DNA of 64,000 bases from a virus (lineage: Duplodnaviria; Caudoviricetes): the IMG/VR virus record IMGVR_UViG_3300042542_005523. One strand, given 5' to 3'. Positions 41,314 through 60,255 of the stretch are shown here, piece by piece. A model generated the notes under the pieces. That model searched no databases. It was not told where the DNA came from and saw nothing but the letters and a program-made list of their open reading frames with translations. A program made the position numbers and the translations under genes. Each line of letters opens with the position of its first letter. The first letter of the stretch is position 1.

Positions 41314-42063
41314 ATGAGCGGATTTTTAGAAAAATACAACACCGACGAGGTATTCTTAAGAAACCTTATCATATCTTTTATTAGATCGCTGAATGATAAA
41401 CTAACCTATATACAGGTAAACGATCAGCAGCAAACACTAGAGGTTTTTGTTCCCTTTTTTTATTCGATGACTGGAGACGAGAGCTTTTTGCAAGACTTCT
41501 TTATAGAATATAAAAACTGTCTTACTGACGAACCCCATGCTGAGGGTAACTATGACGTAGTCCCAAGAGGAATAGTTAAAATGACAGCTAGTAACATAGA
41601 TGTAGCTGGTATAATGAACCCCAATGTTAGAATGTCATACACGATGGAGGATCTAGACGGTAACATGAAAACATTCTCTGCTTATACTAAGCCGGTTCCT
41701 CTTACTGTTTCTTTTGACGTTAGTATAATAACAGATACTATGTTAGATGCTTTTAAAATCTACCAGTCTGTAATAACTACTTTCTATAAAACATATACTT
41801 TTGCTTTTGAGTTCCAGGGATTGAGAATACCCGCTATTGCTGGATTTCCAGAACAGATAACGAACGACAAGCAGTTTGAATTTACGTACGGTAGTTCTCA
41901 GAAGTTTATAACAAGCCAATTTTCAGTTGAGATTCAGACTTACTTCCCAGAAAAAGACCTAACCACGGAAAGGTTCAGGGGTAATTTGATGCAAGCTGGA
42001 ATCAGAGCAGTCCAAAAATTGGACGAAAGAAATGTTAATAGAGGAAATAATAGAATAGTCTAA
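41314..42063 (+). CDS. tail completion / sheath stabiliser, T4 gp15-like
   Basis: VPFFYSMTGDE, VVPRG, PVPLTVSFDVSIITDTMLDAFKI pattern; structural context. Confidence 0.65.
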   Translation: MSGFLEKYNTDEVFLRNLIISFIRSLNDKLTYIQVNDQQQTLEVFVPFFYSMTGDESFLQDFFIEYKNCLTDEPHAEGNYDVVPRGIVKMTASNIDVAGIMNPNVRMSYTMEDLDGNMKTFSAYTKPVPLTVSFDVSIITDTMLDAFKIYQSVITTFYKTYTFAFEFQGLRIPAIAGFPEQITNDKQFEFTYGSSQKFITSQFSVEIQTYFPEKDLTTERFRGNLMQAGIRAVQKLDERNVNRGNNRIV

Positions 42064-42426: not shown

Positions 42427-43521
42427 ATGGCATTTAGAATTCAGATTAGAAGAGACACCTCTGTTAGGTGGGCAGTTAACAACCCAGTACTACTTTCAGC
42501 AGAGTTAGGTTATGAAACTGACACTGATCTCCTTAAGATTGGAGATGGCACTACCCTATGGAATGACCTTGATTACTGGAACGGTAATCTAACTATAGAA
42601 GTAAACGGCACGCAGGTTATACAAGGGGCTGGTACCCTTAACTTTACTGGTGGTGTTTCTGCTAGTGCCACAGGAGGAAGCGTAACACTCGACTTCTCTG
42701 GAGTTGGCGGGTTAACAGGACCAACAGGGCCTAGTGCTAATATTGGAGTTTTCGATGCTACTACATTTGTAGCAGGTGCAACAGGCATACAGTTCACTGG
42801 CGGTGGGGTTAGCGTATCTTCATCTGGAAATGTTGCTGTTGTTTCGGTAAGTGCTTTACAAAACTCACTTTATAACGAGACTGTAAGGTATCTAATCGAT
42901 AACACAACAGCTCAGTATTCAGGATCACCTATCATAGGAACAAATGATAAGATTACTATATGCTCTAGCGGTAACATTTATGCTAATAGATCCTGGACTA
43001 GATCTGGAACTACACTGACAGTAAACTCTACTTCTCATGGATTGTTAGCAGGTGATGGTGTTGTAATTAGAAATGGTGCTTCTACAGATAGCTACAATTT
43101 CTATATAGTCCAAACCGCAAGCGCTAATTCTTTTACTGTGACTGTTGCTAACTCCGGTGGTGCATCAGGAAGCGGATTGACATACATACCTAGCTTTTCT
43201 GTTACCTCCTGGTCGTCTGGAACATCTATGACCCTAAGCGCACCAACAGTTGGTAATGCCCAACTTCTTTCGGCTACTGTCTGTACTGTTATGAGCACTT
43301 CCTCTTTCTATGTTACAATAGACGGTGAGGGAATAAGCAATGGTGCTGGTGTTAATGCCTCGGTTAGAACAATGAATCCACCTGTTGTTTCTGCACAAAC
43401 TACCTCTAACGGTAATGATCTAGCAGCATCGTGTACTCTGGATGTAAATTCTCCGTATCAAACCTTTGTGTTGCAAAGTTTAACTGCAGCTGTTGAAAAT
43501 CTAGTAAAAATGGTATTCTAA
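42427..43521 (+). CDS. tail fibre protein with Mtd N-terminal domain
   Basis: IQIRRDTSVRWAVNNPVLLSAELGYETDTDLLKIGDG; beta-rich T/S/G body. Confidence 0.8.
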   Translation: MAFRIQIRRDTSVRWAVNNPVLLSAELGYETDTDLLKIGDGTTLWNDLDYWNGNLTIEVNGTQVIQGAGTLNFTGGVSASATGGSVTLDFSGVGGLTGPTGPSANIGVFDATTFVAGATGIQFTGGGVSVSSSGNVAVVSVSALQNSLYNETVRYLIDNTTAQYSGSPIIGTNDKITICSSGNIYANRSWTRSGTTLTVNSTSHGLLAGDGVVIRNGASTDSYNFYIVQTASANSFTVTVANSGGASGSGLTYIPSFSVTSWSSGTSMTLSAPTVGNAQLLSATVCTVMSTSSFYVTIDGEGISNGAGVNASVRTMNPPVVSAQTTSNGNDLAASCTLDVNSPYQTFVLQSLTAAVENLVKMVF

Positions 43522-43527
43522 AAATTA

Positions 43528-46500
43528 ATGCTTACGGATAACCTGTTTAGTGGAATTGTAGATTTTACCGACGGTAGCTTAAGCAGCTTAGTTGGTATCA
43601 CAGGTAGTGCGACATACGGGTCCAGTGTGATAACTGGAGTTGATAGCACGATCATACCTGGATTAACTGCTGGCCTTTCGGTTAGAGCACTACCAGAAGG
43701 AATTCTCAATCCCTCTACAACGATAGTTTCTTTGGGCTCTAACACGGTAGAGTTTTCTAACCCGGTAGGTTACACCGGATCCGCTAATTTTTATATAGAA
43801 CTAAGCAGCGGCAATTATCTTTTAAACAACGCTTTATTTGTTGACGTTAACAACATCTATAATGTTGGTGATATACCAGACTATCAAATAGGAGCCACTG
43901 GAGGATTGGTAATTTCTCCTTTTGCGATCTATACTCAGGGAAGATATAACGATCAGAAGAATCTTAAAGCCATATATGAAAAGTACATAATAACAAAAGT
44001 ACTTTCAAGGAACACAGTAACAAATAGATTTAGCGCTATAGTTACTTGGGGTTTTTCAGGATCTGCACCGACGAGTGTTAATACTGGACAGACAGTTCTA
44101 CCTATAACTCAGCTATCCCCGAATAATTTATTGCCTCCCATAATAGACTATAGAGCATTTTCTTATAAGAATCTTCCGGAAGGACAGCCATTTAATCAGG
44201 AGATATTAAAGGTCTTAGATTCTGGAGGAAGCGGAGGAAGCGGAGGAAGCGGAACTTCAGGAACAAGTGGTAGTTCAGGATCTTCAGGAACTTCAGGAAC
44301 AAGTGGTAGTTCAGGCACTAGCGGCACAGACGGTTCATCGGGAACTAGCGGTACAGATGGTTCAAGTGGAACTTCAGGAACTAGCGGTACGGATGGTTCA
44401 TCAGGAACTTCAGGAACATCAGGATCCAGTGGTTCTTCAGGTGAATCGGGTTCAAGTGGTTCATCAGGTGAATCGGGAACTTCAGGATCCAGTGGTTCAT
44501 CAGGTGAATCAGGTTCAAGTGGTTCTTCAGGTGAATCAGGAACTTCAGGAACTTCAGGATCGAGTGGAACATCGGGATCCAGTGGAACATCAGGTGAATC
44601 GGGATCCAGTGGAACATCAGGTGAATCAGGAACTTCAGGAACTTCAGGATCGAGTGGAACTTCGGGATCCAGTGGAACATCAGGTGAATCAGGAACAAGT
44701 GGTTCTTCAGGTGAATCAGGAACTTCAGGATCGAGTGGAACTTCGGGATCCAGTGGAACATCAGGTGAATCAGGAACAAGTGGTTCTTCAGGTGAATCAG
44801 GAACTTCAGGATCGAGTGGAACATCGGGATCCAGTGGAACATCAGGTGAATCAGGAACTTCAGGAACTTCAGGATCAAGTGGAACATCAGGATCCAGTGG
44901 TTCTTCAGGTGAATCGGGAACAAGTGGTTCTTCAGGGACATCTGGTTCAAGTGGTAGTGCGGGTTCATCTGGTTCAACGGGTACTTCAGGTTCTTCTGGA
45001 ACAGGAGGTTCATCAGGTAGCTCTGGTTCAAGTGGAAGTTCAGGTAGTACAGGTTCCTCAGGTTCAAGTGGTAGTTCAGGAACATCTGGCTCAACAGGTA
45101 CTTCAGGAACTTCAGGTTCAAGTGGGTCTTCAGGTAGTTCAGGAAGTAGCGGAACATCTGGTTCTAGTGGAAGTGTTGGAACTTCTGGTACATCAGGTTC
45201 ATCAGGTAGTGTAGGTACTAGTGGAACATCAGGTACATCAGGTACATCAGGTAGTGTAGGTACTAGTGGTACATCTGGTAGTTCAGGTTCTAGCGGTTCG
45301 TCAGGTAATAGTGGAAGTTCAGGTACAAGTGGAACATCAGGTACTTCTGGCTCTAGTGGAAGTGTTGGAACTTCTGGTACATCAGGAAGTTCAGGTTCTT
45401 CAGGTACTAGTGGTAGTTCTGGCTCTACTGGCACATCGGGTACTAGTGGCTCATCAGGAAGTGTAGGTACAAGTGGAAGTTCAGGTTCTAGCGGTTCATC
45501 AGGAAGTTCAGGTATTAGTGGTTCTTCAGGTTCTAGCGGAAGCGCTGGAAGCTCAGGAAGTACAGGTACATCAGGAACTAGTGGAACTTCAGGTAGTTCT
45601 GGTTCAGTAGGAACTTCAGGTACATCAGGTAGTTCTGGTTTATCGGGAAGCAGTGGTTCTTCAGGAAGTACTGGAACATCAGGAAGTACTGGAACTTCAG
45701 GTTCAAGTGGTAGTGTTGGGACTAGTGGTACATCGGGTTCAAGTGGTTCTTCAGGAAGTGTTGGTACGTCTGGTTCATCTGGAAGTGCAGGTACATCAGG
45801 AACTTCAGGGTCATCAGGAAGTTCAGGTACAAGCGGAACATCAGGAACTGGAGGAACTTCAGGTTCAAGTGGTAGTGTTGGGACTAGTGGTACATCAGGA
45901 ACAAGTGGTTCTTCAGGTACATCAGGTAGTTCAGGTTCAAGTGGTTCATCGGGAAGTTCAGGTTCAAGTGGTTCATCGGGTACATCAGGTAGTACTGGTA
46001 CTAGTGGTAGTAGTGGAACAAGCGGAACGTCGGGTTCATCAGGTTCTGCGGGAAGTAGTGGTTCATCAGGTAGTGTTGGAACATCTGGTTCAAGTGGTAG
46101 TTCAGGTAGTTATGGTTCATCAGGTACATCTGGCTCAAGTGGTAGCTCTGGTTCAACAGGTTCGTCAGGTAGTAGTGGTATAACTGGGTCTTCAGGTACG
46201 AGTGGTAGTTCTGGCACATCAGGTTCATCTGGTAGTTCAGGTTCTTCAGGTAGTACTGGTTCATCAGGAACTAGCGGAACATCAGGAACATCAGGTACAA
46301 GTGGTAGTTCAGGTTCTACAGGAACATCGGGTTCTACAGGAACATCGGGTTCATCAGGTAGTAGTGGCTCAAGTGGAAGTTCAGGATTGACAGGTTCATC
46401 AGGAACATCGGGTTCATCAGGGACATCGGGTTCATCAGGTAGTTCTGGTTCAAGTGGTAGTAGCGGAAGTACAGGGTCTTCGGGCACAAGTGGTAGTTCT

Positions 46501-49500
46501 GGTACATCAGGTTCATCAGGAAGTTCAGGTTCATCGGGTTCTAGCGGTAGTGTTGGAACTTCGGGAACAAGTGGTTCAAGTGGAAGTTCAGGTTCTTCAG
46601 GAAGTGTAGGAACATCAGGTACAAGTGGTAGTTCAGGTTCGTCTGGCTCAAGTGGAAATACAGGTTCAAGTGGAACGAGTGGTTCATCAGGTACATCTGG
46701 CTCAAGTGGTAGTTCAGGTTCGTCTGGCTCAAGTGGTTCAAGTGGAACGAGTGGTTCATCAGGTACATCTGGCTCAAGTGGTAGTTCAGGTTCGTCTGGC
46801 TCAAGTGGTTCAAGTGGAAGTTCAGGTTCTTCAGGAAGTGTAGGAACATCAGGTACAAGTGGTAGTTCAGGTTCTTCAGGTAGTTCAGGTGTTAATGGTT
46901 CTTCAGGGACTAGTGGTAGTTCGGGAACATCTGGTTCTTCAGGAAGTTCGGGTTCATCAGGTTCTAGTGGTAGTTCAGGAACATCTGGCTCAAGCGGGTC
47001 TTCTGGTTCAAGTGGAAGTACTGGTTCTTCAGGAAGTGCAGGTACATCGGGTAGTGTAGGAACTAGCGGTAGTTCTGGTTCATCTGGTTCTTCAGGTAGT
47101 ACTGGCTCAAGTGGTACTTCAGGTTCATCAGGTAGTGTAGGTACTAGTGGTTCATCAGGTAGTTCTGGTTCAAGTGGTAGTAGCGGAAGTACAGGGTCTT
47201 CTGGTACAAGTGGGAACTCAGGAACATCTGGTACAAGCGGAAGTACAGGGTCTTCTGGTACAAGCGGTTCATCAGGTAGTACTGGGTCAAGTGGAAGTTC
47301 AGGAAGTAGTGGTAGTGTAGGAACAAGTGGTTCTTCAGGGACATCTGGCTCAACAGGTACTTCAGGAACATCAGGTTCAAGTGGGTCTTCAGGTAGTTCG
47401 GGTTCATCAGGAAGTTCAGGTACAAGCGGAACATCAGGTTCAGTAGGAACAAGTGGTTCATCGGGAAGTTCAGGGTCAACAGGAACTTCAGGTTCAAGTG
47501 GGTCTTCAGGTAGTTCAGGAAGTAGCGGAACATCTGGTTCTAGTGGAAGTGTTGGAACTTCTGGCACATCAGGAACAAGTGGTTCATCGGGAAGTTCTGG
47601 TTCTGCCGGTACAAGTGGAAGTGTAGGAACAAGTGGTACTTCAGGTTCATCTGGCTCAAGTGGAAGTTCAGGTTCAACAGGTAGTTCAGGTACTAGCGGT
47701 TCATCTGGAAGTTCTGGTTCTGCAGGTACAAGTGGAAGTTCTGGTTCTTCAGGTAGTACGGGTTCAAGAGGAACTAGCGGAACATCAGGAAGTTCTGGTT
47801 CTGTTGGAACTAGTGGAACGTCTGGTTCAGTAGGAACTAGCGGAACATCTGGAACAAGTGGTTCATCAGGTTCTAGCGGTAGCGCTGGAAGCTCAGGAAG
47901 TGTAGGTACTTCAGGTACTAGTGGAAGCTCAGGAAGTGTAGGAACATCTGGTTCAAGTGGTACTACTGGTACCTCAGGAACATCAGGTAGTTCAGGTTCA
48001 TCTGGTAGTGTTGGTACATCAGGAACTTCGGGTACTAGCGGAACATCAGGTTCTAGCGGTTCGTCAGGAAATAGTGGAAGTTCAGGTACAAGTGGAACAT
48101 CGGGTTCAACTGGGTCTTCAGGCTCAAGTGGTAGTTCGGGAAGTGTTGGTACATCAGGAAGTAGTGGTTCTTCAGGTTCTAGTGGTAGTACTGGAAGCTC
48201 AGGAAGTACAGGTACATCGGGTTCAAGTGGAACTTCAGGTTCTTCAGGTACTAGCGGAACATCGGGAACTAGTGGTAGTTCAGGTTCAGTTGGTACATCA
48301 GGAACTTCGGGTTCAAGTGGTAGTTCTGGTTCTACTGGTACATCGGGTACTAGCGGTTCTTCAGGTTCTAGCGGTAGCGCTGGAAGCTCAGGAAGTACAG
48401 GTACATCAGGTACTAGTGGTAGTTCTGGTAGCGTAGGAACATCGGGTACATCAGGTAGTTCTGGTTCATCGGGTAGTTCTGGCTCAACAGGCTCGTCAGG
48501 TAGTAGTGGAACTTCTGGTTCATCTGGCTCAAGCGGAAGTGTTGGAACATCTGGTTCGTCAGGAAGTACTGGCTCAAGTGGTTCATCAGGAAGTACAGGA
48601 ACATCAGGTAGTGCTGGTTCTTCTGGCTCAAGTGGTAGTTCAGGTTCAAGTGGAAGTACTGGAACATCAGGTAGTAGTGGAACATCAGGTTCATCAGGTT
48701 CTAGCGGTAGTACTGGAAGCTCAGGAACGTCAGGTTCTGTAGGTACAAGCGGGACATCAGGAACTTCGGGAAGTACTGGTTCTAGTGGAAGTTCAGGAAC
48801 AAGTGGTTCATCTGGAAGTTCAGGGTCATCAGGAAGTACTGGTACATCAGGAACATCTGGTTCTTCAGGTAGTTCAGGTTCTAGCGGAAGTTCAGGTTCA
48901 AGTGGAACTAGTGGTAGTTCAGGAAGTTCTGGTTCATCGGGTAGTACAGGTTCTTCAGGTAGTTCAGGTTCTAGCGGAAGTTCAGGTTCAAGTGGAACTA
49001 GTGGTAGTTCAGGAAGTTCTGGTTCATCGGGTAGTACAGGTACTTCAGGAAGCTCAGGTTCAAGTGGAACTAGTGGTTCTTCAGGGTCTAGCGGTTCATC
49101 GGGTTCTAGTGGAAGTTCAGGGTCATCTGGTAGTACAGGTTCAAGAGGAACTAGCGGTTCTTCAGGAACATCAGGTACTAGTGGTACATCAGGAAGTGTT
49201 GGGACAAGTGGTACGTCAGGAAGTACTGGAACATCAGGTTCAAGTGGTAGTGTAGGTACATCGGGAACTTCAGGTTCATCTGGAAGTACGGGTAGTTCAG
49301 GTACTAGCGGTAGTAGTGGTTCATCAGGAAGTTCTGGCTCGACTGGTAGTTCAGGAAGTTCTGGAACTTCAGGTTCTAGTGGTAGTTCGGGAACATCAGG
49401 GTCATCAGGTAGCGTAGGTACTAGCGGTTCTTCTGGTTCAAGTGGAAGTTCAGGTTCTAGCGGAAGTACAGGGTCAAGCGGAACTAGTGGAAGTTCAGGT

Positions 49501-52500
49501 TCATCTGGAAGTGTAGGAACAAGTGGAACCTCAGGTTCAGTAGGTACAAGTGGTACATCAGGAAGTTCAGGCTCAAGTGGTAGTACGGGTTCATCTGGTA
49601 CTAGCGGCTCTTCGGGAAGTACTGGGTCATCTGGAAGTTCAGGTTCAACAGGAACTAGCGGTTCTTCAGGAACATCAGGTAGTAGCGGTTCTAGTGGTAG
49701 TGCTGGTAGTTCAGGTTCTGCGGGTACAAGTGGAAGTGTAGGAACATCTGGGACTTCTGGTTCAAGTGGGTCATCAGGTTCTAGTGGGAGTGTTGGAACT
49801 TCTGGTACATCAGGAACAAGTGGTTCGTCAGGTTCTAGCGGTAGTGCTGGAAGCTCAGGAAGTACTGGTTCATCAGGTTCTGCGGGAAGTGCTGGTACAT
49901 CAGGGGTTAATGGTTCTTCAGGAACATCAGGTTCTGCTGGCTCAAGTGGAAGTTCAGGTTCTTCAGGTAGTGTTGGTACTTCTGGTACAAGCGGAACTTC
50001 AGGTTCATCAGGTAGTGCTGGCTCGTCGGGGTCTAGCGGTTCTGTTGGTACTTCAGGTAGTAGTGGAACATCTGGAAGCTCTGGCTCAAGTGGTAGTGCG
50101 GGGTCATCAGGGAGTACTGGTACAAGTGGAAGTTCGGGTTCAACTGGTACTTCAGGTAGTTCAGGAACATCTGGTACTTCAGGTTCAAGTGGAAGTAGTG
50201 GCTCATCAGGTTCTTCAGGAAGTGCTGGTACAAGTGGAACATCTGGCTCATCAGGTTCAACGGGTAGTTCAGGAAGTGCTGGTACAAGTGGAACATCAGG
50301 TTCTAGTGGAAGTAGTGGTAGTTCAGGGTCATCTGGTTCTGCGGGTACATCAGGAAGTAGTGGAAGTACAGGTTCTTCTGGTTCAAGTGGGACATCAGGT
50401 TCAACGGGTAGTTCAGGAAGTAGTGGAACAAGTGGTTCATCTGGTACTTCAGGTTCATCTGGCTCAAGTGGTAGTACGGGTTCTTCAGGAAGCTCAGGCT
50501 CAAGCGGAAGTTCTGGTTCAACAGGTTCTAGAGGAACAAGTGGAACTTCTGGTTCGTCAGGAACTAGCGGAACGTCAGGAACATCTGGTTCATCAGGAAG
50601 TTCGGGTTCAAGTGGTTCGTCTGGGTCTACAGGAACAAGTGGTTCGGCTGGTACATCAGGAAGTAGTGGAAGTTCAGGGTCTAGTGGTAGTGCTGGAAGT
50701 TCAGGGTCTAGTGGTAGTGCTGGAAGTTCAGGTTCAGTAGGTACAAGTGGTTCTTCAGGAACATCAGGTTCTAGTGGGTCTTCAGGAAGTTCTGGTAGTT
50801 CAGGTTCAGCTGGTACAAGTGGAAGTGTAGGAACATCTGGTTCTTCAGGAAGTTCTGGTTCAAGTGGTTCATCAGGAAGTTCAGGTTCTACAGGTTCAAG
50901 AGGAACATCGGGTACTAGTGGTACATCAGGTAGTAGTGGTTCTAGTGGTAGTGCTGGTACTTCAGGTTCAGTAGGGACAAGTGGCTCTTCAGGAAGTGCT
51001 GGTAGTTCAGGTTCATCGGGTAGTAGCGGAACATCAGGTTCGTCAGGAACAAGTGGTTCGTCAGGGTCTAGCGGTAGTACTGGAAGTTCAGGAAGTTCTG
51101 GCTCTGTTGGTACATCAGGTAGTTCGGGGTCATCCGGAAGCTCAGGAAGTAGTGGTTCATCAGGTACATCGGGAGCTAACGGAAGTTCAGGAACATCTGG
51201 GTCTAGTGGAAGTTCAGGAAGTAGTGGTTCATCAGGCTCAAGTGGGTCTGCTGGTACTTCAGGTGCTAACGGAAGTTCAGGAACAAGTGGTTCGTCAGGT
51301 TCTAGCGGAAGTGCTGGAAGCTCAGGAAGTTCGGGAACATCAGGTAGTAGTGGTAGTTCAGGGTCCTCAGGGAGTACAGGTTCAAGAGGAACAAGCGGTT
51401 CTTCAGGTACATCAGGAACCTCAGGAAGTGCTGGTTCATCAGGTTCTTCAGGTTCAAGTGGAAGTGTAGGAACAAGTGGTAGTTCTGGTTCTGCGGGTTC
51501 TAGTGGAACTTCAGGTTCAACAGGAACATCAGGTAGTTCAGGTTCAAGTGGAGTAACTGGTTCTTCAGGTACTAGCGGTTCTTCAGGAAGTTCTGGGTCA
51601 TCAGGGTCTAGTGGAAGTGTTGGAACTAGCGGTTCATCTGGTACAAGTGGTTCATCAGGTAGTTCAGGAAGTTCGGGTTCAAGCGGTAGTAGTGGAAGTT
51701 CAGGGTCAACAGGTTCAAGAGGAACATCAGGAAGTACTGGTACAAGTGGTTCGGCTGGTACCTCAGGTTCAAGTGGAAGTTCAGGTAGTAGTGGATTAAG
51801 TGGTGTTGATGGTACTAATGGAACATCTGGAAGTTCTGGTTCAAGTGGTGTTAACGGAAGTTCAGGAAGTAGTGGTACATCTGGTTCTAGTGGAAGTTCT
51901 GGCTCTGCTGGTAGTTCAGGTTCTGCAGGTACAAGTGGAAGTGTTGGAACATCAGGTTCTTCAGGGAGTTCTGGTTCAAGTGGTTCTTCAGGAAGTTCTG
52001 GCTCAACAGGTTCAAGAGGAACAAGTGGTTCTTCAGGGACTTCAGGAAGTTCAGGTTCAAGTGGAAGTAGTGGAAGTTCAGGGTCATCAGGTGTTAGTGG
52101 TTCTTCAGGGACATCAGGTTCAAGTGGAAGTTCAGGTTCTTCTGGTTCAAGTGGAAGTTCAGGAACATCTGGCTCAACAGGAACTTCAGGGTCATCAGGT
52201 TCTAGTGGAAGTACTGGTACTTCAGGTAGTTCAGGAACATCAGGGTCTAGCGGTAGTTCGGGGTCATCTGGAAGCTCAGGAAGTAGTGGTTCATCAGGTA
52301 CATCGGGAGCTAACGGAAGTTCAGGTACAAGTGGTTCTTCAGGAAGTAGTGGTAGTTCAGGGTCATCTGGCTCTGCTGGTACATCAGGTGCTAATGGAAG
52401 TTCAGGAACATCTGGTTCAAGTGGTAGTGCTGGAAGCTCAGGAAGTAGTGGTAGTTCTGGTTCCGTTGGAACTTCAGGTTCTAGCGGTTCATCAGGAAGT

Positions 52501-55500
52501 GCTGGTACGAGTGGAAGTTCAGGAAGTAGTGGCTCATCAGGTTCTTCAGGAAGTACAGGTTCAAGAGGAACATCAGGTACTTCGGGAACATCAGGTACAT
52601 CAGGTGCCAATGGAAGTAGTGGAACATCAGGTAGTAGTGGTTCTAGCGGAAGTGCTGGAAGCTCAGGAAGTTCAGGTTCAACTGGAACATCTGGTTCTTC
52701 AGGAAGTAGTGGTTCTAGTGGTAGTTCAGGAAGTACAGGTTCTTCTGGTTCAAGTGGAACATCAGGTTCGTCAGGAAGTTCCGGCTCATCAGGATCAAGT
52801 GGGTCTGCTGGAACTTCAGGGGCTAACGGAAGTTCAGGAACAAGTGGTTCTTCAGGTTCTAGTGGTAGTGCTGGAAGCTCAGGAAGTTCTGGTACATCGG
52901 GTGCTAACGGAAGTTCAGGAACATCAGGTAGTAGTGGTTCTAGTGGAAGTGCTGGTTCATCAGGAAGTTCAGGTTCAACTGGTACATCTGGTTCTTCAGG
53001 AAGTAGTGGTTCTAGTGGAAGCGCTGGTTCATCAGGAAGTACAGGTTCAAGAGGAACATCAGGTACATCAGGAACATCAGGAAGTGCTGGTTCATCAGGT
53101 TCAAGTGGAAGTTCAGGAACATCAGGAGCTAACGGAAGTTCGGGAACATCCGGTACAAGTGGAAGTTCAGGTTCTTCGGGAAGTAGTGGTAGTTCTGGCT
53201 CTGCTGGTACATCAGGTGCTAATGGAAGTAGCGGAACATCAGGTAGCTCCGGTTCATCTGGCTCAAGTGGAAGTAGTGGTAGTTCAGGTTCATCAGGAAC
53301 AAGTGGGGCTAATGGAAGTTCAGGTACAAGTGGTAGTTCTGGAACATCGGGCTCAAGTGGGTCGTCAGGTAGTTCAGGCTCAAGTGGAAGTTCTGGAATT
53401 AACGGTTCATCAGGAACTTCAGGTTCAAGTGGTAGCACAGGGTCTAGTGGTAGTAGTGGTTCTTCAGGTAGTTCAGGAACATCAGGAAGTAGTGGGACAT
53501 CGGGAAGTTCTGGTTCAAGCGGAAGTTCTGGTTCATCAGGAAGCACAGGTTCAAGAGGAACAAGTGGTTCTTCAGGAACATCAGGAAGTGCTGGTTCATC
53601 AGGTTCAAGTGGTAGTACTGGAAGCTCGGGTACTTCTGGTTCATCAGGAAGTTCTGGCTCAAGCGGATTAACAGGTTCTTCAGGAACAAGCGGTTCGAGT
53701 GGTTCTTCAGGAAGTACAGGTTCTAGCGGAAGTGCTGGAAGCTCAGGAAGTTCAGGTACATCAGGTGCTAATGGAAGCAGTGGAACCTCTGGGTCAAGTG
53801 GTTCATCAGGAAGTGCTGGCTCATCAGGAAGTTCAGGTTCAACTGGTTCTTCGGGAAGTAGTGGTTCTAGTGGAAGCGCTGGTTCATCAGGAAGTACAGG
53901 TTCAAGAGGTACTAGTGGTACATCAGGGACATCAGGGACATCAGGAAGTGCTGGTTCATCAGGTACATCAGGTGCTAATGGAAGCAGTGGAACCTCTGGG
54001 TCAAGTGGTTCATCAGGAAGTGCTGGCTCATCAGGTTCAAGTGGAAGTTCAGGAACATCGGGAAGTGCTGGCTCATCAGGTTCTAGTGGAAGTTCAGGAA
54101 CATCAGGAACAAGTGGAAGTTCAGGTTCATCAGGAAGTTCTGGAATTACTGGTTCATCGGGAACTTCAGGTTCTAGCGGAAGTGCTGGCAGCTCAGGAAG
54201 TGGAGGTTCATCGGGAACATCAGGTTCTTCGGGAACAAGTGGAAGTGCTGGTTCATCAGGAAGTTCTGGAATTACTGGTTCATCAGGTACTTCTGGTTCA
54301 TCGGGTAGTTCAGGTTCAGCAGGAAGTTCAGGAACATCAGGTTCATCAGGAAGTGCAGGTTCAAGTGGGATATCAGGAAATGACTCTTCTAACTCAGGTA
54401 GATGGGGTTACGCATCAGGTGGAGGGGTTCCTGGTTCGGGAAGATTTAGCGCAAGTAGTTCGACACTTTCATCTGTAATTGGTTTTGCAGTTAATGACCT
54501 TGATATTAATTCTACCGATTACGATGAATGGTGGTTAACAGCTGAGGGGTTAGTATCTGGAGGAAATGGGATATACTTACAAGTAACTCAAGTAGGCAGT
54601 AATAATATAATAGGTCTTTATTCAGTTTCCGCGATAAATGATAATACCACATATTGGTCAATAACAGTTAAATTCATAGCTGGGAGTGGTTCTATGACCA
54701 ATGCCGAAAATTATACAATATCTTGGGTTTACAATGGTGCTGATGGTCCTTCTGGTTCAAGTGGAACATCAGGTTCAAGCGGAAGTTCTGGAAGTTCAGG
54801 CTCTAGTGGTATTGCTGGTAGTTCGGGAACATCTGGTTCTTCAGGTTCAAGCGGAAGTTCTGGAAGTTCAGGTTCAAGTGGTATTGCTGGTAGTTCGGGA
54901 ACATCTGGTTCTTCAGGAAGTAGTGGTTCTACAGGTTCAAGAGGAACTAGCGGTTCTTCAGGTTCAAGTGGAAGCTCAGGTTCAAGCGGTTCTACAGGTT
55001 CAAGAGGAACTAGCGGTTCTTCAGGTTCAAGTGGAACTAGCGGTTCTTCAGGTTCAAGTGGAAGCTCAGGTTCAAGCGGTTCTACAGGTTCAAGAGGAAC
55101 TAGTGGGACATCTGGAACATCAGGTTCATCTGGAACATCATCAACGGTTTATGTGGGTAATGCTAATGGTGCAGGTATTACTAATGGTGCTAGAGGTTCT
55201 ATTTATTTAGGGGGAACACCTGTTGCCATGGTTGCGGTTACCGCAGGTGATTACGGAGGTGGTGCAACTGATTTTATGCCAGGATACCCAATGCCTGCAG
55301 GAACTGCAAGTAAAATGAGAGTTATTACAAGAAGTGCCAATCCTGCTCTAAATAGTTTAGAGGTCTATGTTGCTAATGCTACTACATCAACATTAGGTGC
55401 TAAAGTTACAATAGCCGCTGGGTCAGCCGCAGGAGTTTACACTACAGATGACGGAACAACAGTTACGTACTCAGTTGGTGATAGATTATATTGTATTGCT

Positions 55501-55575
55501 AAAAATCCTAATGTGGGGGGAGGAGCGACTTCCGCACAAATAACTACAGTATCATTTAATTTTACACCTAGCTAA
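43528..55575 (+). CDS. giant Gly-X-Y (GSS/GTS) repeat fibre protein, 4015 aa
   Basis: About 230-aa N domain, about 3390 aa of Gly-(Ser/Thr)-Ser triplets, about 120-aa globular insert (54379-54744), second short repeat, about 145-aa C domain. Confidence 0.85.
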   Translation: MLTDNLFSGIVDFTDGSLSSLVGITGSATYGSSVITGVDSTIIPGLTAGLSVRALPEGILNPSTTIVSLGSNTVEFSNPVGYTGSANFYIELSSGNYLLNNALFVDVNNIYNVGDIPDYQIGATGGLVISPFAIYTQGRYNDQKNLKAIYEKYIITKVLSRNTVTNRFSAIVTWGFSGSAPTSVNTGQTVLPITQLSPNNLLPPIIDYRAFSYKNLPEGQPFNQEILKVLDSGGSGGSGGSGTSGTSGSSGSSGTSGTSGSSGTSGTDGSSGTSGTDGSSGTSGTSGTDGSSGTSGTSGSSGSSGESGSSGSSGESGTSGSSGSSGESGSSGSSGESGTSGTSGSSGTSGSSGTSGESGSSGTSGESGTSGTSGSSGTSGSSGTSGESGTSGSSGESGTSGSSGTSGSSGTSGESGTSGSSGESGTSGSSGTSGSSGTSGESGTSGTSGSSGTSGSSGSSGESGTSGSSGTSGSSGSAGSSGSTGTSGSSGTGGSSGSSGSSGSSGSTGSSGSSGSSGTSGSTGTSGTSGSSGSSGSSGSSGTSGSSGSVGTSGTSGSSGSVGTSGTSGTSGTSGSVGTSGTSGSSGSSGSSGNSGSSGTSGTSGTSGSSGSVGTSGTSGSSGSSGTSGSSGSTGTSGTSGSSGSVGTSGSSGSSGSSGSSGISGSSGSSGSAGSSGSTGTSGTSGTSGSSGSVGTSGTSGSSGLSGSSGSSGSTGTSGSTGTSGSSGSVGTSGTSGSSGSSGSVGTSGSSGSAGTSGTSGSSGSSGTSGTSGTGGTSGSSGSVGTSGTSGTSGSSGTSGSSGSSGSSGSSGSSGSSGTSGSTGTSGSSGTSGTSGSSGSAGSSGSSGSVGTSGSSGSSGSYGSSGTSGSSGSSGSTGSSGSSGITGSSGTSGSSGTSGSSGSSGSSGSTGSSGTSGTSGTSGTSGSSGSTGTSGSTGTSGSSGSSGSSGSSGLTGSSGTSGSSGTSGSSGSSGSSGSSGSTGSSGTSGSSGTSGSSGSSGSSGSSGSVGTSGTSGSSGSSGSSGSVGTSGTSGSSGSSGSSGNTGSSGTSGSSGTSGSSGSSGSSGSSGSSGTSGSSGTSGSSGSSGSSGSSGSSGSSGSSGSVGTSGTSGSSGSSGSSGVNGSSGTSGSSGTSGSSGSSGSSGSSGSSGTSGSSGSSGSSGSTGSSGSAGTSGSVGTSGSSGSSGSSGSTGSSGTSGSSGSVGTSGSSGSSGSSGSSGSTGSSGTSGNSGTSGTSGSTGSSGTSGSSGSTGSSGSSGSSGSVGTSGSSGTSGSTGTSGTSGSSGSSGSSGSSGSSGTSGTSGSVGTSGSSGSSGSTGTSGSSGSSGSSGSSGTSGSSGSVGTSGTSGTSGSSGSSGSAGTSGSVGTSGTSGSSGSSGSSGSTGSSGTSGSSGSSGSAGTSGSSGSSGSTGSRGTSGTSGSSGSVGTSGTSGSVGTSGTSGTSGSSGSSGSAGSSGSVGTSGTSGSSGSVGTSGSSGTTGTSGTSGSSGSSGSVGTSGTSGTSGTSGSSGSSGNSGSSGTSGTSGSTGSSGSSGSSGSVGTSGSSGSSGSSGSTGSSGSTGTSGSSGTSGSSGTSGTSGTSGSSGSVGTSGTSGSSGSSGSTGTSGTSGSSGSSGSAGSSGSTGTSGTSGSSGSVGTSGTSGSSGSSGSSGSTGSSGSSGTSGSSGSSGSVGTSGSSGSTGSSGSSGSTGTSGSAGSSGSSGSSGSSGSTGTSGSSGTSGSSGSSGSTGSSGTSGSVGTSGTSGTSGSTGSSGSSGTSGSSGSSGSSGSTGTSGTSGSSGSSGSSGSSGSSGTSGSSGSSGSSGSTGSSGSSGSSGSSGSSGTSGSSGSSGSSGSTGTSGSSGSSGTSGSSGSSGSSGSSGSSGSSGSTGSRGTSGSSGTSGTSGTSGSVGTSGTSGSTGTSGSSGSVGTSGTSGSSGSTGSSGTSGSSGSSGSSGSTGSSGSSGTSGSSGSSGTSGSSGSVGTSGSSGSSGSSGSSGSTGSSGTSGSSGSSGSVGTSGTSGSVGTSGTSGSSGSSGSTGSSGTSGSSGSTGSSGSSGSTGTSGSSGTSGSSGSSGSAGSSGSAGTSGSVGTSGTSGSSGSSGSSGSVGTSGTSGTSGSSGSSGSAGSSGSTGSSGSAGSAGTSGVNGSSGTSGSAGSSGSSGSSGSVGTSGTSGTSGSSGSAGSSGSSGSVGTSGSSGTSGSSGSSGSAGSSGSTGTSGSSGSTGTSGSSGTSGTSGSSGSSGSSGSSGSAGTSGTSGSSGSTGSSGSAGTSGTSGSSGSSGSSGSSGSAGTSGSSGSTGSSGSSGTSGSTGSSGSSGTSGSSGTSGSSGSSGSTGSSGSSGSSGSSGSTGSRGTSGTSGSSGTSGTSGTSGSSGSSGSSGSSGSTGTSGSAGTSGSSGSSGSSGSAGSSGSSGSAGSSGSVGTSGSSGTSGSSGSSGSSGSSGSAGTSGSVGTSGSSGSSGSSGSSGSSGSTGSRGTSGTSGTSGSSGSSGSAGTSGSVGTSGSSGSAGSSGSSGSSGTSGSSGTSGSSGSSGSTGSSGSSGSVGTSGSSGSSGSSGSSGSSGTSGANGSSGTSGSSGSSGSSGSSGSSGSAGTSGANGSSGTSGSSGSSGSAGSSGSSGTSGSSGSSGSSGSTGSRGTSGSSGTSGTSGSAGSSGSSGSSGSVGTSGSSGSAGSSGTSGSTGTSGSSGSSGVTGSSGTSGSSGSSGSSGSSGSVGTSGSSGTSGSSGSSGSSGSSGSSGSSGSTGSRGTSGSTGTSGSAGTSGSSGSSGSSGLSGVDGTNGTSGSSGSSGVNGSSGSSGTSGSSGSSGSAGSSGSAGTSGSVGTSGSSGSSGSSGSSGSSGSTGSRGTSGSSGTSGSSGSSGSSGSSGSSGVSGSSGTSGSSGSSGSSGSSGSSGTSGSTGTSGSSGSSGSTGTSGSSGTSGSSGSSGSSGSSGSSGSSGTSGANGSSGTSGSSGSSGSSGSSGSAGTSGANGSSGTSGSSGSAGSSGSSGSSGSVGTSGSSGSSGSAGTSGSSGSSGSSGSSGSTGSRGTSGTSGTSGTSGANGSSGTSGSSGSSGSAGSSGSSGSTGTSGSSGSSGSSGSSGSTGSSGSSGTSGSSGSSGSSGSSGSAGTSGANGSSGTSGSSGSSGSAGSSGSSGTSGANGSSGTSGSSGSSGSAGSSGSSGSTGTSGSSGSSGSSGSAGSSGSTGSRGTSGTSGTSGSAGSSGSSGSSGTSGANGSSGTSGTSGSSGSSGSSGSSGSAGTSGANGSSGTSGSSGSSGSSGSSGSSGSSGTSGANGSSGTSGSSGTSGSSGSSGSSGSSGSSGINGSSGTSGSSGSTGSSGSSGSSGSSGTSGSSGTSGSSGSSGSSGSSGSTGSRGTSGSSGTSGSAGSSGSSGSTGSSGTSGSSGSSGSSGLTGSSGTSGSSGSSGSTGSSGSAGSSGSSGTSGANGSSGTSGSSGSSGSAGSSGSSGSTGSSGSSGSSGSAGSSGSTGSRGTSGTSGTSGTSGSAGSSGTSGANGSSGTSGSSGSSGSAGSSGSSGSSGTSGSAGSSGSSGSSGTSGTSGSSGSSGSSGITGSSGTSGSSGSAGSSGSGGSSGTSGSSGTSGSAGSSGSSGITGSSGTSGSSGSSGSAGSSGTSGSSGSAGSSGISGNDSSNSGRWGYASGGGVPGSGRFSASSSTLSSVIGFAVNDLDINSTDYDEWWLTAEGLVSGGNGIYLQVTQVGSNNIIGLYSVSAINDNTTYWSITVKFIAGSGSMTNAENYTISWVYNGADGPSGSSGTSGSSGSSGSSGSSGIAGSSGTSGSSGSSGSSGSSGSSGIAGSSGTSGSSGSSGSTGSRGTSGSSGSSGSSGSSGSTGSRGTSGSSGSSGTSGSSGSSGSSGSSGSTGSRGTSGTSGTSGSSGTSSTVYVGNANGAGITNGARGSIYLGGTPVAMVAVTAGDYGGGATDFMPGYPMPAGTASKMRVITRSANPALNSLEVYVANATTSTLGAKVTIAAGSAAGVYTTDDGTTVTYSVGDRLYCIAKNPNVGGGATSAQITTVSFNFTPS
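44221..54378 (+). repeat. 9-nt-period coding repeat (GGN-WSN-WSN) with shuffled synonymous codons
   Basis: Continuous Gly every third codon for about 10.2 kb; few long exact DNA duplications. Confidence 0.95.
48859..49038 (+). repeat. exact 90-nt tandem duplication inside the fibre repeat
   Basis: 48859-48948 is repeated at 48949-49038. Confidence 0.85.
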
Positions 55576-55820
55576 TGGAATACACATACAAACAAATAGA
55601 AAATGGCGATTGGCAATTACTTGTTATTGTAAATGAAATACCTATTGTGTTCATTCTATCTGAAGACCTTATAGGTACTGAAGATACACCTCCTAGGGGT
55701 TTACCTGAACATATACAAATGATACAAGATTTTAAAGATGTTTCTAAACTAGAATATTTTATTCAACTTTTAATAGATAACCCTGGTACAGCATTTTCTA
55801 TATATAATAATTTTGAATGA
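55575..55820 (+). CDS. small hypothetical protein downstream of fibre (possible chaperone)
   Basis: Start overlaps the fibre stop codon. Confidence 0.6.
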   Translation: MEYTYKQIENGDWQLLVIVNEIPIVFILSEDLIGTEDTPPRGLPEHIQMIQDFKDVSKLEYFIQLLIDNPGTAFSIYNNFE

Positions 55821-56245: not shown

Positions 56246-56274
56246 GAAACAAAGATACCTCTTAATTGTATAAT
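56246..56274 (+). promoter_or_regulatory. putative promoter GAAAC-N16-TGTATAAT of glycan cluster 2
   Basis: Matches motifs at 9113-9140 and 34291-34319. Confidence 0.5.
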
Positions 56275-56289
56275 AAGGAAAGGTACTTC

Positions 56290-59052: not shown

Positions 59053-59675
59053 TAGTTGGATTCAATGAATATAAACACAAGTATCAATTTAATGTTATAG
59101 GTGTAATTCATGTTGGGGCTCATGTTGGTCAAGAATATAATGAATATATTGAAACATTTGGTTTAATCCCTACATATTGGTTTGAACCAATACCACATGT
59201 TTATAAAGAACTATCAAAAAATTTAGATGGGAAACCTAACACATTTTATTATAATGTTGCGATAGGTGAAAAAATTGGTATACATAAAATGTATCTTGAT
59301 GATGGTAACGGACAACAAAGTTCATCGTTATTAAAACCAAAAGAACATCAAAATTTTTATCCCCATATCAAATTTAGTGAAGAAAACACTATTAATATTA
59401 CCTTGAATACATTAGATTTTTATGGTATAGATAGTTGTAATGTTTTAGTTTTAGATACTCAGGGGTATGAGTTAAATGCTCTTAAGGGTTCAATTAATAC
59501 CTTAAAGAATATTGATTATATATTCACAGAATTTAATGATATTGAAATGTATGATGGTTGTCCATCAATTGAACAACTTGATGAATTTTTACAACCTTTT
59601 GGGTTTTACAGACAAGAAACATGGAATGTTGATGGAGTATGGGGTGATGCATTTTACTTAAAAAAATATGATTAA
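59049..59675 (+). CDS. FkbM-family methyltransferase (paralogue of 12194-12829)
   Basis: IHVGAHVGQE, WFEP, LDTQGYEL, YIFTEFN, WGDAFY. Confidence 0.9.
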   Translation: MIVGFNEYKHKYQFNVIGVIHVGAHVGQEYNEYIETFGLIPTYWFEPIPHVYKELSKNLDGKPNTFYYNVAIGEKIGIHKMYLDDGNGQQSSSLLKPKEHQNFYPHIKFSEENTINITLNTLDFYGIDSCNVLVLDTQGYELNALKGSINTLKNIDYIFTEFNDIEMYDGCPSIEQLDEFLQPFGFYRQETWNVDGVWGDAFYLKKYD

Positions 59676-60255
59676 AAAAGCTTTTATCGGTAATGGGGGA
59701 CATTTGAGAGAGGTAATCGCTCATACGAGATATGATGTTACTAGATTTGTTGAAGACGAATACTTCAACGGGGAACATAATACATTACCGTTATCGCAAT
59801 TCGATCCAAAAGAGTATTCTATTATGATTGCAATTGCTGACAGTCAGGTTAGAGCAAGAATTCAAAAATCATTGCCCGAAGACACCAGATATTTTTCATT
59901 CATCGATCCATCGGCAATTCTTTTGGATAGAAATATTGTAATCGGTGAAGGTTCATTTATTGGTGCAAATTGTGTAATAACTACTAATGTTAGTATTGGT
60001 AATCATTCAATTTTAAATAGAAATGTTAATATCGGACATGATTCGGTAATAGGTGATTTTTTTAGTGCTATGGCGGGGTCCGTAGTGTCAGGGAACGTTT
60101 CAATTGGCAATAATTGTTATATGGGTAACAATTCATCAATCCGTGAAAAAACAACTATTTGTGATGATGTGGTAATTGGGATGAATGGAAGTGTTGTTAA
60201 GAATATCGATAAACCTGGAACTTATGTTGGAGTTCCTGTTAATAAAATTAAATAA
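59668..60255 (+). CDS. NeuD/PglD-family sugar acetyltransferase
   Basis: GNGGHLRE, IAIAD...R, hexapeptide repeats (IGEGSFIG, IGHDSVIG), YVGVP. Confidence 0.9.
   Translation: MIKKAFIGNGGHLREVIAHTRYDVTRFVEDEYFNGEHNTLPLSQFDPKEYSIMIAIADSQVRARIQKSLPEDTRYFSFIDPSAILLDRNIVIGEGSFIGANCVITTNVSIGNHSILNRNVNIGHDSVIGDFFSAMAGSVVSGNVSIGNNCYMGNNSSIREKTTICDDVVIGMNGSVVKNIDKPGTYVGVPVNKIK

Follow-up and report, generated by a model that had tools for sequence, protein, structure and literature searches.

A collagen-like phage fibre gene with 1,129 unbroken Gly-X-Y triplets and its linkage to a putative protein-serine glycosyltransferase

Collagen-like fibres are already known from phages and prophages (PF01391; EPclA of E. 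coli O157; the PHROG family 'collagen like minor tail'). They share with the fibre described here the Gly-X-Y repeats in trimeric fibres, a modular C-terminal tip and a position in hypervariable host-recognition regions (PMC3368898, PMC7029224, PMC10202952). The described examples have tens to about 100 triplets and usually contain proline and charged residues, neither of which characterizes the 1,129 triplets found here; in addition, the present fibre gene shows linkage to that of a protein O-glycosyltransferase. A similar architecture is found in the BclA, F-BclA and L-BclA proteins of Bacillus (spore exosporium nap and ENA tip fibrils), although there is no detectable sequence homology to them (5-14% identity). 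The phage stalk is 5-50 times longer and consists of Gly-Ser/Thr-Ser without proline, in contrast to the Gly-Pro-Thr of BclA. Moreover, the fibre is phage-encoded with another N-terminal anchor and a candidate enzyme of the BAHT (bacterial autotransporter heptosyltransferase) family, whereas Bacillus uses a rhamnose/anthrose system.

The cuticle collagen of the vent worm Riftia, a protein of the animal extracellular matrix, forms a very long triple helix with proline in X and galactosyl-threonine in Y. Together with (Gly-Pro-Thr)n peptides it resembles the helix proposed here in that glycosylated hydroxy-amino acids replace hydroxyproline, but in the phage stalk Y is mostly serine and proline is absent. 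Characterised members of the BAHT family glycosylate protein serines and not lipids or polysaccharides. In the BAHT systems TibC-TibA and Aah-AIDA-I the gene of the cytoplasmic enzyme lies, likewise, near that of a Ser-rich repetitive surface fibre, its proposed target; here, however, the proposed substrate is collagen-like and not a beta-helical autotransporter passenger, and the enzyme is phage-encoded with a fused N-terminal GT4. Glycosylated virions are known from mycobacteriophages. Mimivirus with its glycosylated fibrils and other large DNA viruses use virus-encoded sugar machinery on their own surface proteins (PMC4691112), as we infer for the present phage; the proteins, enzymes and hosts are different, and no such collagen stalk is known from Mimivirus or the mycobacteriophages.

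Two sequence-encoded stabilisers of the collagen triple helix are known: Pro or Hyp in the X and Y positions, and salt bridges between Lys and Glu or Asp, which were proposed in 2025 as a general collagen folding code across life and viruses (PMC11923368). The same paper cites Bann et al. (2000) for Gly-Pro-Thr peptides that fold only if glycosylated, and 'Sweet is stable' on helices that rely on glycosylated hydroxy-amino acids.

The window analysed here (the whole stretch of 64,000 nucleotides) comes from a freshwater lake jumbo phage that carries its fibre gene among neck and tail genes. The giant fibre gene (P0001, 43528..55575, plus strand, as are the features of the window written below in the form start..end) is an open frame of 4,015 codons in this assembly. 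What is new in comparison with the known collagen-like phage fibres is the run of 1,129 unbroken triplets without accepted helix stabilisers, combined with a protein-serine glycosyltransferase gene about 10.8 kb downstream in a near-identical genome. In our judgement the balance tips, by a modest amount, towards a virion-attached homotrimeric collagen-like host-recognition fibre with a glycosylated stalk.

The main collagen-like stalk (44224..54384; aa 233-3619) is one run of triplets. A scripted scan of the ORF found no phase break over 3,387 residues, which agrees well with the roughly 3,390 residues of strict Gly-X-Y in the original prediction. Ser and Thr occupy 92% of the X and Y positions (X: S 751, T 330, E 12, A 12; Y: S 910, T 81, A 55, V 46, N 17, R 11), and Pro, thought to be essentially absent, does not occur at all in this run; Lys is also missing, and 12 Glu, 5 Asp and 11 Arg are present. 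The zoning that had been proposed along the length is borne out as well: GES is confined to aa 305-461 near the start, GSVGTS occurs at 46 positions, the first 40 of which span aa 548 to 2432 in the middle, GANG is distal (aa 2549-3482), and the GSRGTS landmark, expected more than ten times, is found 14 times. The small globular caps exist too. They comprise an N-terminal domain of 232 residues (aa 1-232), a beta-rich subterminal knob of 117 residues (54385..54735; aa 3620-3736) and a C-terminal head of 144 residues (aa 3872-4015). Between knob and head lies a distal collagen-like segment of 45 triplets (54736..55140; aa 3737-3871) that matches Pfam Collagen; PF01391 scores 67.1 bits on the fibre against a cut-off of 27.2. 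At the level of DNA the repeat is no simple array, the copies found by Tandem Repeats Finder agreeing at 60-80%. A homologue of the knob is also subterminal in a fibre of more than 3,084 aa in another phage (L056). A single-sequence AF2 model from knob to head (aa 3612-4015) reached a pLDDT of only 33, and ESM Atlas feature searches with the knob and the N-terminal domain returned only unnamed viral clusters or scores below 0.9. By eye, the inserts of other metagenomic collagen-like fibres resemble the knob.

With no Pro, no Lys and 28 charged residues in 3,387, both known sequence-encoded triple-helix stabilisers are absent from the main stalk. The stalk could therefore be flexible, acting as a mucin-like or entropic tether that may carry sugars and is joined only at its trimeric ends, or else form a PPII-type bundle; in either case it would extend over far less than 1 micrometre. 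The lack of imino acids and of Lys-Glu/Asp salt bridges, stabilisers proposed as general (PMC11923368), is in line with this alternative, Gly/Ser-rich chains are classic flexible linkers, and unequal crossing-over between repeats in multiples of 9 nt would preserve the phase without structural need. However, unconstrained glycines would erode by point substitution, and all 1,174 of the 1,174 triplet glycines in the main and distal runs are intact. All four Gly codons are in use in the stalk with every one of the 1,129 main-run glycines retained, and over the last 1,111 codons the window differs from the allele of a 96-98% identical IMG/VR genome (G001) by 25 synonymous and 5 non-synonymous changes. 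The full retention of Gly despite this divergence indicates purifying selection on the triplet pattern. The sister allele is also strict, with 288+592+45 triplets. Furthermore, a TNF/C1q-type trimeric head straight after Gly-X-Y is the standard arrangement in collagens, and such a head is predicted here. As for bundles of the snow-flea antifreeze type, these need phase-breaking turns, and no turn motif was found in the 3,387 residues. Nor does the stalk, having no Pro and a strict period of three, correspond to a mucin-type PTS domain, although it may act like a mucin if glycosylated. Taken together, we regard a tether or bundle as distinctly unlikely. The original prediction had allowed either a collagen-like triple helix or packed PPII chains; the unbroken phase and the predicted trimeric head favour the former over a bundle.

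The C-terminal head (55141..55575) was modelled as a TNF/C1q-like jelly roll with a pLDDT of 82.5. The structures that match it best are trimeric heads of the TNF/C1q type, those of F-BclA and BclA among them, and phage receptor-binding heads. Modelled as a trimer the head scored 0.96 (best of three controls 0.00), a mark that 20 of 30 proteins with structures of same-chain pairs attained, as did 1 of 23 with single-chain structures; since TNF/C1q trimers are themselves solved structures, this pass may reflect likeness and not independent evidence. The trimer runs showed a contact agreement of at least 90% with a partner pLDDT of at least 93, and the invariant FxPGYPMP loop falls within the modelled interface. 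The head is thus predicted to form a homotrimer, and a trimerisation and registration domain beside the Gly-X-Y repeat is present by prediction. Directly behind it, overlapping the stop codon of the fibre gene, an 81-aa ORF (55575..55820) encodes a putative head-specific assembly factor without a family match in Pfam or PHROG. The same head is found on unrelated shafts in other phages, and the 81-aa ORF directly follows it in L014 and L015 (70% identity) and in L016 (59%), where the shafts are unrelated. Judging from these sequences, head and 81-aa ORF move together between phages. Low-complexity collagen matches overwhelmed a search for homologues that used the head together with repeats. The stretch 55821-56266 was considered as an orphaned fibre end and discarded, as it had no tblastx match in any fetched locus.

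At the other end of the protein, the N-terminal domain (43528..44223) is predicted to be a conserved virion-anchor module. It has no family match in Pfam or PHROG. Among 1.84 billion representative proteins 12 homologues were found (48-92% identity), whose distal parts are unrelated and comprise Calx-beta repeats, Ig-like regions and another type of collagen repeat. The domain is found on four unrelated shafts at a shared locus, as in a phage fibre with exchangeable shafts. Upstream of the fibre gene are a T4 gp15-like tail sheath stabiliser or tail completion protein of 249 aa (41314..42063; PF16724 T4-gp15_tss, 27.9 bits, cut-off 25) and a 364-aa tail-fibre-like protein that carries an Mtd_N domain (42427..43521; PF18454 Mtd_N, 48.6 bits), the N-terminus of which is matched by tail spike and tail fibre families of PHROGs. 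The latter gene ends 6 nt before the fibre start. In the sister genome the sugar cluster behind the fibre is followed by a gp14-like neck protein and then by TerL and sheath, so that the fibre gene is situated between tail and neck genes on both sides. Synteny with a relative (L017) extends from UvsX as far as the Mtd_N gene, and the relative has the gp15-like gene and a fibre homologue in place; there, the N-terminal domain is in the same position and the rest of the region is swapped. By sequence, the protein is a modular phage fibre with a conserved anchor, a swappable head and a neck/tail gene location. Searches of 50,697 GenBank phage records with the flanks (megablast) and both terminal domains (tblastn) found nothing, and UvsX is only 33-38% identical to that of huge phages and Lak phages.

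A gene with such a repeat could be real while its length or internal order is partly an artefact of assembly, or one of many variants in the population, so that 4,015 aa would not be a fixed length. Contigs assembled from lake metagenomes with k=31 are interrupted at 44291 and 55074; in three lake runs the short-read contigs end at both repeat edges and none bridges, so these contigs neither confirm nor refute the length. The allele of the sister genome has the same two ends and a shorter, different middle (less than 85% identical to the window, 3,415-aa frame) with an extra globular insert of 146 aa, which also fits population variants. On the other hand, the longest exact internal repeat of the gene is between 101 and 120 nt, so that longer reads or k-mers resolve the stalk. 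Interior pieces of 340-500 nt with 0 differences to the window were found in runs from 2020, 2023 and 2024, at a depth like that of the flanks (24-44 versus 27.5 in run X1). Both independent assemblies have frames of more than 3,400 aa, and runs of 861, 677, 641 and 639 triplets occur on other phage contigs. We consider this reading, artefact or variant, unlikely, although the 3,415-aa frame of the sister assembly makes 4,015 aa a provisional figure. A sediment metatranscriptome yielded short pieces only, with 0-6 differences each, which makes them unusable as expression evidence. The extra insert of the sister allele had been taken for C1q-like by eye and was rejected as such: it has no Pfam match, is unrelated to the head profile and has no meaningful PDB sequence match.

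Behind the fibre, where a glycosyltransferase cluster had been predicted, sugar genes indeed extend from 56266 to past 64000. The first is a fusion of GT4, FkbM methyltransferase and DegT-like parts (56266..59052, 928 aa; Pfam). An FkbM methyltransferase, a PglD-like acetyltransferase, a GT2 (578 aa), an unknown gene, a methyltransferase and the start of a GT follow (59049..64000; Pfam). In the sister genome the cluster runs past the equivalent of the window and ends in a GT4-TibC/Aah fusion (L012:975-3110), read there about 1.3 kb past the window end and about 10.8 kb downstream of the fibre. This fusion scores 265.7 bits on TIGR04414 (cut-off 200) and aligns to TibC (PDB 4RAP) with an E value of 5.4e-53, including the Cys cluster. 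Going by these matches, the enzyme is a member of the BAHT family of the protein-serine O-heptosyltransferase type. The fibre has neither an autotransporter barrel nor beta-helix repeats, the usual form of a BAHT substrate, and carries Gly-X-Y instead; if it is the substrate, it would represent a new BAHT substrate class.

For comparison across phages we counted ORFs with at least 30 GXY triplets within 10 kb of an anchor gene, using 80 IMG/VR loci per anchor. Such an ORF was found at 36 of the 80 BAHT-anchored loci, at 4/80 TerL-anchored and at 0/80 loci anchored on GDP-mannose dehydratase (GMD). BAHT genes are thus at least 9-fold enriched beside collagen-like ORFs in comparison with the two controls, in several arrangements. 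After dereplication, 22 of 39 BAHT enzyme clusters have a collagen-like ORF, in addition to that of the window phage itself with its fibre at a distance of 10.8 kb; 15 of the 22 have gaps no larger than 2.7 kb, and the gene arrangements differ. Giant fibres near BAHT genes measure more than 3,084 aa (with the run of 861 triplets), more than 3,082 aa and 2,396 aa. Altogether, the enzyme gene is present on 258 IMG/VR contigs. Three Methylomicrobium assemblies have a BAHT homologue beside a short ORF that contains Ser/Thr GXY triplets in a run; as read in L344, this ORF begins like a signal peptide and carries a long stretch of GTS. No description of the enzyme-fibre pairing was found in the literature on phages with TibC or heptosyltransferase and on jumbo phages with collagen. 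A census of proteins of 2,208-7,027 aa gave only six weak matches, of which three contain Gly-X-Y runs, none longer than 67 triplets; as short contigs probably lead to under-calling of giant repeats, this census is weak evidence of rarity.

The BAHT gene in a 96-98% identical genome and the linkage across phages give real support to a glycosylated stalk, and to judge from these genes the stalk is probably glycosylated. The alternative is an ordinary unglycosylated collagen-like tail fibre, with flanking sugar genes that serve other ends, such as remodelling of host LPS or capsule against superinfection or modification of other targets, and are co-located in a hypervariable host-recognition island. 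Host-recognition clusters of pelagimyophages and cyanomyophages mix tail fibres, collagen repeats, Mtd domains and glycosyltransferases, and their glycan islands have been read as modifying host LPS (PMC7029224). The window also has an upstream glycan island of about 19 kb (~9146..28598; Pfam and NCBIfam) with GT11, GT2, GT6, PseC-like, NeuB, CMP-transferase, PEP mutase with phosphonopyruvate decarboxylase, and GDP-mannose dehydratase, enzymes typical of O-antigen or capsule. Together with the downstream cluster it amounts to about 27 kb, close to the 28 kb of glycan genes originally estimated. No tie of this island to the fibre was found, the GMD-anchored loci of other phages having no collagen-like ORF nearby, and a role of the island in the fibre is speculative. 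The exchange of the entire region in L017 and the missing link between GMD and collagen-like ORFs fit the unglycosylated fibre as well. Against it stand the enzyme at the end of the cluster, whose characterised relatives target protein serines, its enrichment beside collagen-like ORFs, and the absence of Pro and Lys, which would leave the stalk without any known way to maintain a triple helix. On this evidence we consider the unglycosylated fibre unlikely. The original prediction had seen the main role of the protein in scaffolding a phage glycocalyx; the anatomy (anchor, swappable head with partner gene, neck and tail genes) is that of a host-recognition fibre, and the scaffold is speculative.

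For the glycosylated host-recognition fibre, the triple-helical form and its length, the place on the virion, the sugar modification and the function are inferred as follows. The N-terminal domain would dock the fibre to the particle. The head would trimerise, probably aided by the 81-aa protein, set the register of the three chains and nucleate zipper-like folding of the Gly-X-Y repeat, and would serve as the adhesive or receptor-binding tip. As a triple helix with about 0.28-0.29 nm per residue, the 1,129+45 triplets would give a stalk of about 0.95-1.0 micrometre; for F-BclA fibrils, the lengths that have been measured correspond to 0.28 nm per residue (PMC12357932). A stalk of this length would greatly widen the radius within which the phage catches host cells in dilute lake water. 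In the host cytoplasm the GT4-TibC/Aah-type enzyme would O-glycosylate Ser and Thr hydroxyls of the stalk, the other transferases and the methyltransferases of the downstream cluster could extend the sugars, and these would stabilise and protect the helix. More tentatively, and possible rather than probable, the TibC-type enzyme and its GT4 extender coat the approximately 1,000 Y-position serines of each chain, and these sugars make a Pro-free and Lys-free helix fold and hold, an arrangement that would be shared by many lake phages and, on a small scale, by methanotrophs.

Lacking Lys, the stalk either runs counter to the salt-bridge code or offers a natural test of sugar-dependent folding. 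A fibre of about 1 micrometre, if true, would be several times as long as most phage tails and would matter for the way in which large phages encounter rare hosts in dilute water. The pairing of enzyme and fibre, if true, would widen both phage self-glycosylation and the range of BAHT substrates, and a sugar-dependent helix would constitute a third, enzyme-written collagen 'folding code'.

Within the upstream island, the ORF 17163-17783 is no more than a lead for a Maf-type flagellin nonulosonic-acid transferase, as PF01973 scored 24.4 bits (cut-off 34.6) and PDB and NCBIfam gave nothing. For the same ORF, the Atlas gave a lead to WaaZ/MptE-like clusters.

The fibre gene (43528-55575, plus strand) is a single open frame of 4,015 codons. 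A script walking Gly-X-Y in phase found 1,129 triplets (3,387 residues) with zero phase breaks between aa 233 and 3619, the longest unbroken Gly-X-Y run among the sequences examined, and a second run of 45 triplets at aa 3737-3871. In the main run position X is Ser 751 times and Thr 330 times, and position Y is Ser (910), Thr (81), Ala (55) or Val (46) in most triplets; Pro and Lys are absent, one Tyr is the sole aromatic residue and the charged residues total 28. The original prediction of about 3390 residues of strict Gly-X-Y, mostly Ser/Thr and without Pro, is thus borne out. The same is true of the zoning described with it: GES is found at aa 305-461 alone, GSVGTS extends from aa 548 to 2432 for the first 40 of its 46 positions, GANG ranges over aa 2549-3482, and GSRGTS, noted there more than ten times, occurs 14 times in the fibre. 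The Pfam Collagen family matches with 67.1 bits (cut-off 27.2). The DNA of the stalk consists of repeat units that are multiples of 9 nt and match by 60-80% (Tandem Repeats Finder); the longest stretch repeated exactly within it measures between 101 and 120 nt, and all Ser and all Gly codons are in use. Judged by its sequence, it is an old, diverged repeat.

The nearest record, the IMG/VR contig G001 (52,188 nt), is 96.6-98.3% identical to positions 21986-44936 and 51981-63998 of the window and encodes a sister fibre of 3,415 aa. The terminal domains of both fibres are identical, and mid-repeat identity is below 85%. The G001 stalk (288 + 592 + 45 triplets) is divided by an additional beta-rich globular insert of 146 aa in mid-stalk (fibre aa 1097-1242; 4290-4757 of L011, a piece of G001), which is absent from the window allele, has no Pfam match and no meaningful PDB sequence match and is unrelated to the C-terminal head. 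The last 1,111 codons of the alleles align without gaps and show 25 synonymous versus 5 non-synonymous differences, so that the gene looks translated and constrained.

The fibre length could be partly artefactual or variable, an alternative of low probability that would be compatible with a glycosylated triple-helical stalk. Among the lake metagenome data examined (k=31 contigs, three runs) no gene-spanning read or contig was found; the contigs end at 44291 and restart at about 55074-55109. Several stretches from the interior, 340-500 nt long, agree with the window at every position and have a depth of 24-44, compared with 27.5 on the flanks (one run, X1), and 31-mers of the repeat are present in no fewer than 23 metagenome runs of lake water, dating from 2020-2025. 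The sequence is therefore locally correct, and the allele has lasted for years. Moreover, two assemblies (window and G001) both give a frame of more than 3,400 aa. The stalk length of BclA is polymorphic; the 4,015 aa are the length as assembled, and the exact length of the phage fibre is probably polymorphic as well. Within 44500-54400 the summed contig depth in the lake metagenomes is 1,000-4,700 versus about 27 on the flanks, which shows that lake water is very rich in near-identical Gly-Ser/Thr-Ser coding words contributed by many other genomes.

With neither imino acids nor Lys, the stalk is devoid of both stabilisers that a sequence can encode: Pro/Hyp, and salt bridges between Lys and Glu/Asp, which have been proposed as a general triple-helix stabiliser (PMC11923368). 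A flexible tether instead of a helix would suit this composition; we regard it as improbable, as the perfectly conserved Gly argues for a triple helix under selection. Sugars added by an enzyme would reconcile the conserved Gly of such a helix with the absent stabilisers. According to a passage in PMC11923368, (Gly-Pro-Thr)10 is a coil unless Thr is galactosylated.

Past the window's end, the G001 sugar cluster continues with another glycosyltransferase and a 711-aa GT4-TibC/Aah fusion, followed by a gp14-like neck protein, the large terminase and the tail sheath. The 711-aa protein scores 265.7 bits with TIGR04414 (cut-off 200) and matches TibC (4RAP) with E 5.4e-53, the Cys cluster being aligned. 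By these sequence comparisons it genuinely belongs to the autotransporter O-heptosyltransferase (BAHT) family, whose characterised enzymes add heptose to protein serines in the cytoplasm.

BAHT-type enzymes are encoded on 258 IMG/VR contigs. Eighty of these were fetched with 10-kb flanks, and 36/80 loci contain a Gly-X-Y ORF of at least 30 triplets, compared with 4/80 terminase-anchored control loci. After dereplication of the enzymes at 90% identity, 22 of 39 clusters were positive, plus the own cluster of the window's phage, where the fibre lies 10.8 kb away. The gap between enzyme and fibre is at most 2.7 kb in 15 of the 22 positive clusters, in convergent as well as co-directional arrangements, and partner fibres measure >3,084, >3,082, 2,396 and 1,752 aa. 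In the reverse search, the enzyme was found within 10 kb in 14 of 78 Ser/Thr Gly-X-Y loci. Three Methylomicrobium assemblies (L344, L339, L340) have a short Ser/Thr Gly-X-Y ORF directly adjoining a TibC-like heptosyltransferase gene; the one of Candidatus Methylomicrobium oryzae (L344:11154-11864) starts, when translated, like a signal peptide and contains a long GTS run.

The expected co-occurrence of Gly-X-Y fibres with glycan genes hence holds for BAHT loci and fails for the GDP-mannose dehydratase of the upstream glycan island, where 0/80 anchored loci carry a Gly-X-Y ORF of at least 30 triplets in the 10-kb flanks. This island (9.1-28.6 kb: GT11, GT2, GT6, PseC-like, NeuB, CMP-transferase, PEP mutase with phosphonopyruvate decarboxylase, GDP-mannose dehydratase) has no demonstrated link to the fibre, and such islands in related marine myophages have been read as host-LPS modifiers (PMC7029224). 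The dehydratase loci would fit a plain fibre without sugars whose gene lies in a hypervariable island; considering the BAHT loci we hold this to be rather unlikely and lean slightly towards a glycosylated fibre.

The fibre protein behaves as three modules: the N-domain, the C-terminal 144 aa and the partner encoded by an 81-aa ORF. Neither Pfam nor PHROGs has a family for the N-domain (aa 1-232). A search of 1.84 billion representative proteins gave 12 homologues (48-92% identity over the domain) with differing distal parts: a Calx-beta protein of 1,061 aa, repeat-free proteins of 612-655 aa and a collagen of the Gly-Ala-Thr type with a knob. L017, the contig carrying the Calx-beta form, shows gene-by-gene synteny with the window (UvsX, gp41-like helicase, gp47/gp46-like nuclease, PKD protein, gp15-like protein, 97-aa ORF, 364-aa Mtd_N protein), and its fibre homologue occupies the same slot. 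This pattern is characteristic of a conserved module for virion attachment whose shaft can be exchanged.

The C-terminal 144-aa domain also ends 18 other proteins (272-798 aa, 59-87% identity) whose shafts are unrelated tail-fibre-like sequences. Its AF2 model, built with an alignment of head homologues, is all-beta (pLDDT 82.5), and the best Foldseek matches are 4-1BB ligand (E 3.7e-4), the head of F-BclA, the tip fibrillum of Bacillus F-ENA (7.5e-4), C1q, cerebellins and ExsF. Three copies gave a trimer model with a score of 0.96, a mark reached by 20/30 proteins solved as pairs of one chain and 1/23 solved as single chains; among 3 controls the highest score was 0.00. The runs share at least 90% of contacts with a partner pLDDT of at least 93, and the invariant FxPGYPMP loop falls in the modelled interface. 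Since TNF/C1q trimers are solved structures, this result may reflect likeness rather than independent evidence.

The 81-aa ORF (55575-55820) overlaps the fibre stop codon and belongs to no known family. It directly follows the same head behind different shafts in three other phages, L014 and L015 (70% identity) and L016 (59%), and head and ORF therefore move as a cassette. Receptor-binding tips and assembly factors are known to move together in this way; the 81-aa product is a candidate for an assembly factor specific to this head. The subterminal knob (aa 3620-3736) has the same place in another giant fibre (L056, >3,084 aa, 861-triplet run), and by eye the inserts of other metagenomic collagen-like fibres look similar.

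We propose that the head sets three chains in register, assisted by the 81-aa protein, and that the helix would then zip toward the N-terminus. The BAHT-GT4 enzyme and the downstream transferases would decorate Ser/Thr before or during folding, and the N-domain would dock the trimer onto neck or tail. With a rise of 0.28 nm per residue, which agrees with measured F-BclA fibrils (PMC12357932), the main stalk would be about 0.95 micrometre long. The head, whose nearest phage analogues bind sugars, would make the first host contact. Each component is already known: collagen-like fibres of phages, glycoproteins of the BclA type, and BAHT enzymes. Their combination, a Pro-free, Lys-free stalk with a 1,129-triplet run that belongs to a jumbo phage and whose genetic linkage to a protein-serine heptosyltransferase extends across many phage lineages, was not found in the literature searched.

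Upstream of the fibre lie T4-type replication and recombination genes and then the gp15-like tail completion protein; behind it, the sugar cluster encodes a GT4-FkbM-DegT fusion, an FkbM methyltransferase, a PglD-like acetyltransferase, a GT2 and methyltransferases. The 445 nt between the 81-aa ORF and this cluster (55821-56265) contain stop-interrupted frames that resemble the remains of a gene; the fetched loci yielded no homologue. As relatives retrieved via terminase, dehydratase and heptosyltransferase include contigs of 240-434 kb, the phage is a lake jumbo myovirus-type phage. In 32/80 terminase-anchored relatives (L099-L178) a TibC-like gene lies within 10 kb of the large terminase, and its place beside the neck/packaging module thus seems conserved in the phage group.

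Within the glycan island, a phosphonate branch (20877-25249) comprises a TarB-like glycerophosphotransferase-type gene (20877-21767), a cytidylyltransferase-PEP mutase fusion (21722-23053), a phosphonopyruvate decarboxylase split into TPP N and C halves (23636-24491) and an Fe-alcohol-dehydrogenase-like gene (24461-25249). This gene content suggests phage-made phosphonate-decorated glycans. A nonulosonic-acid block (15206-20819) encodes a PseC/LegC-like aminotransferase, a DUF4910/DUF2172 protein, a CMP-transferase and a NeuB/PseI-like synthase; its 206-aa ORF (17163-17783), with a sub-threshold MptE/Maf/WaaZ-like match, could be the transferase. Also encoded in the window are a ferritin-like protein (2480-3079), another tail-fibre-like protein with Mtd_N, the second one (4466-5224), and a complete double AAA+ chaperone of the ClpB type (5261-7411).
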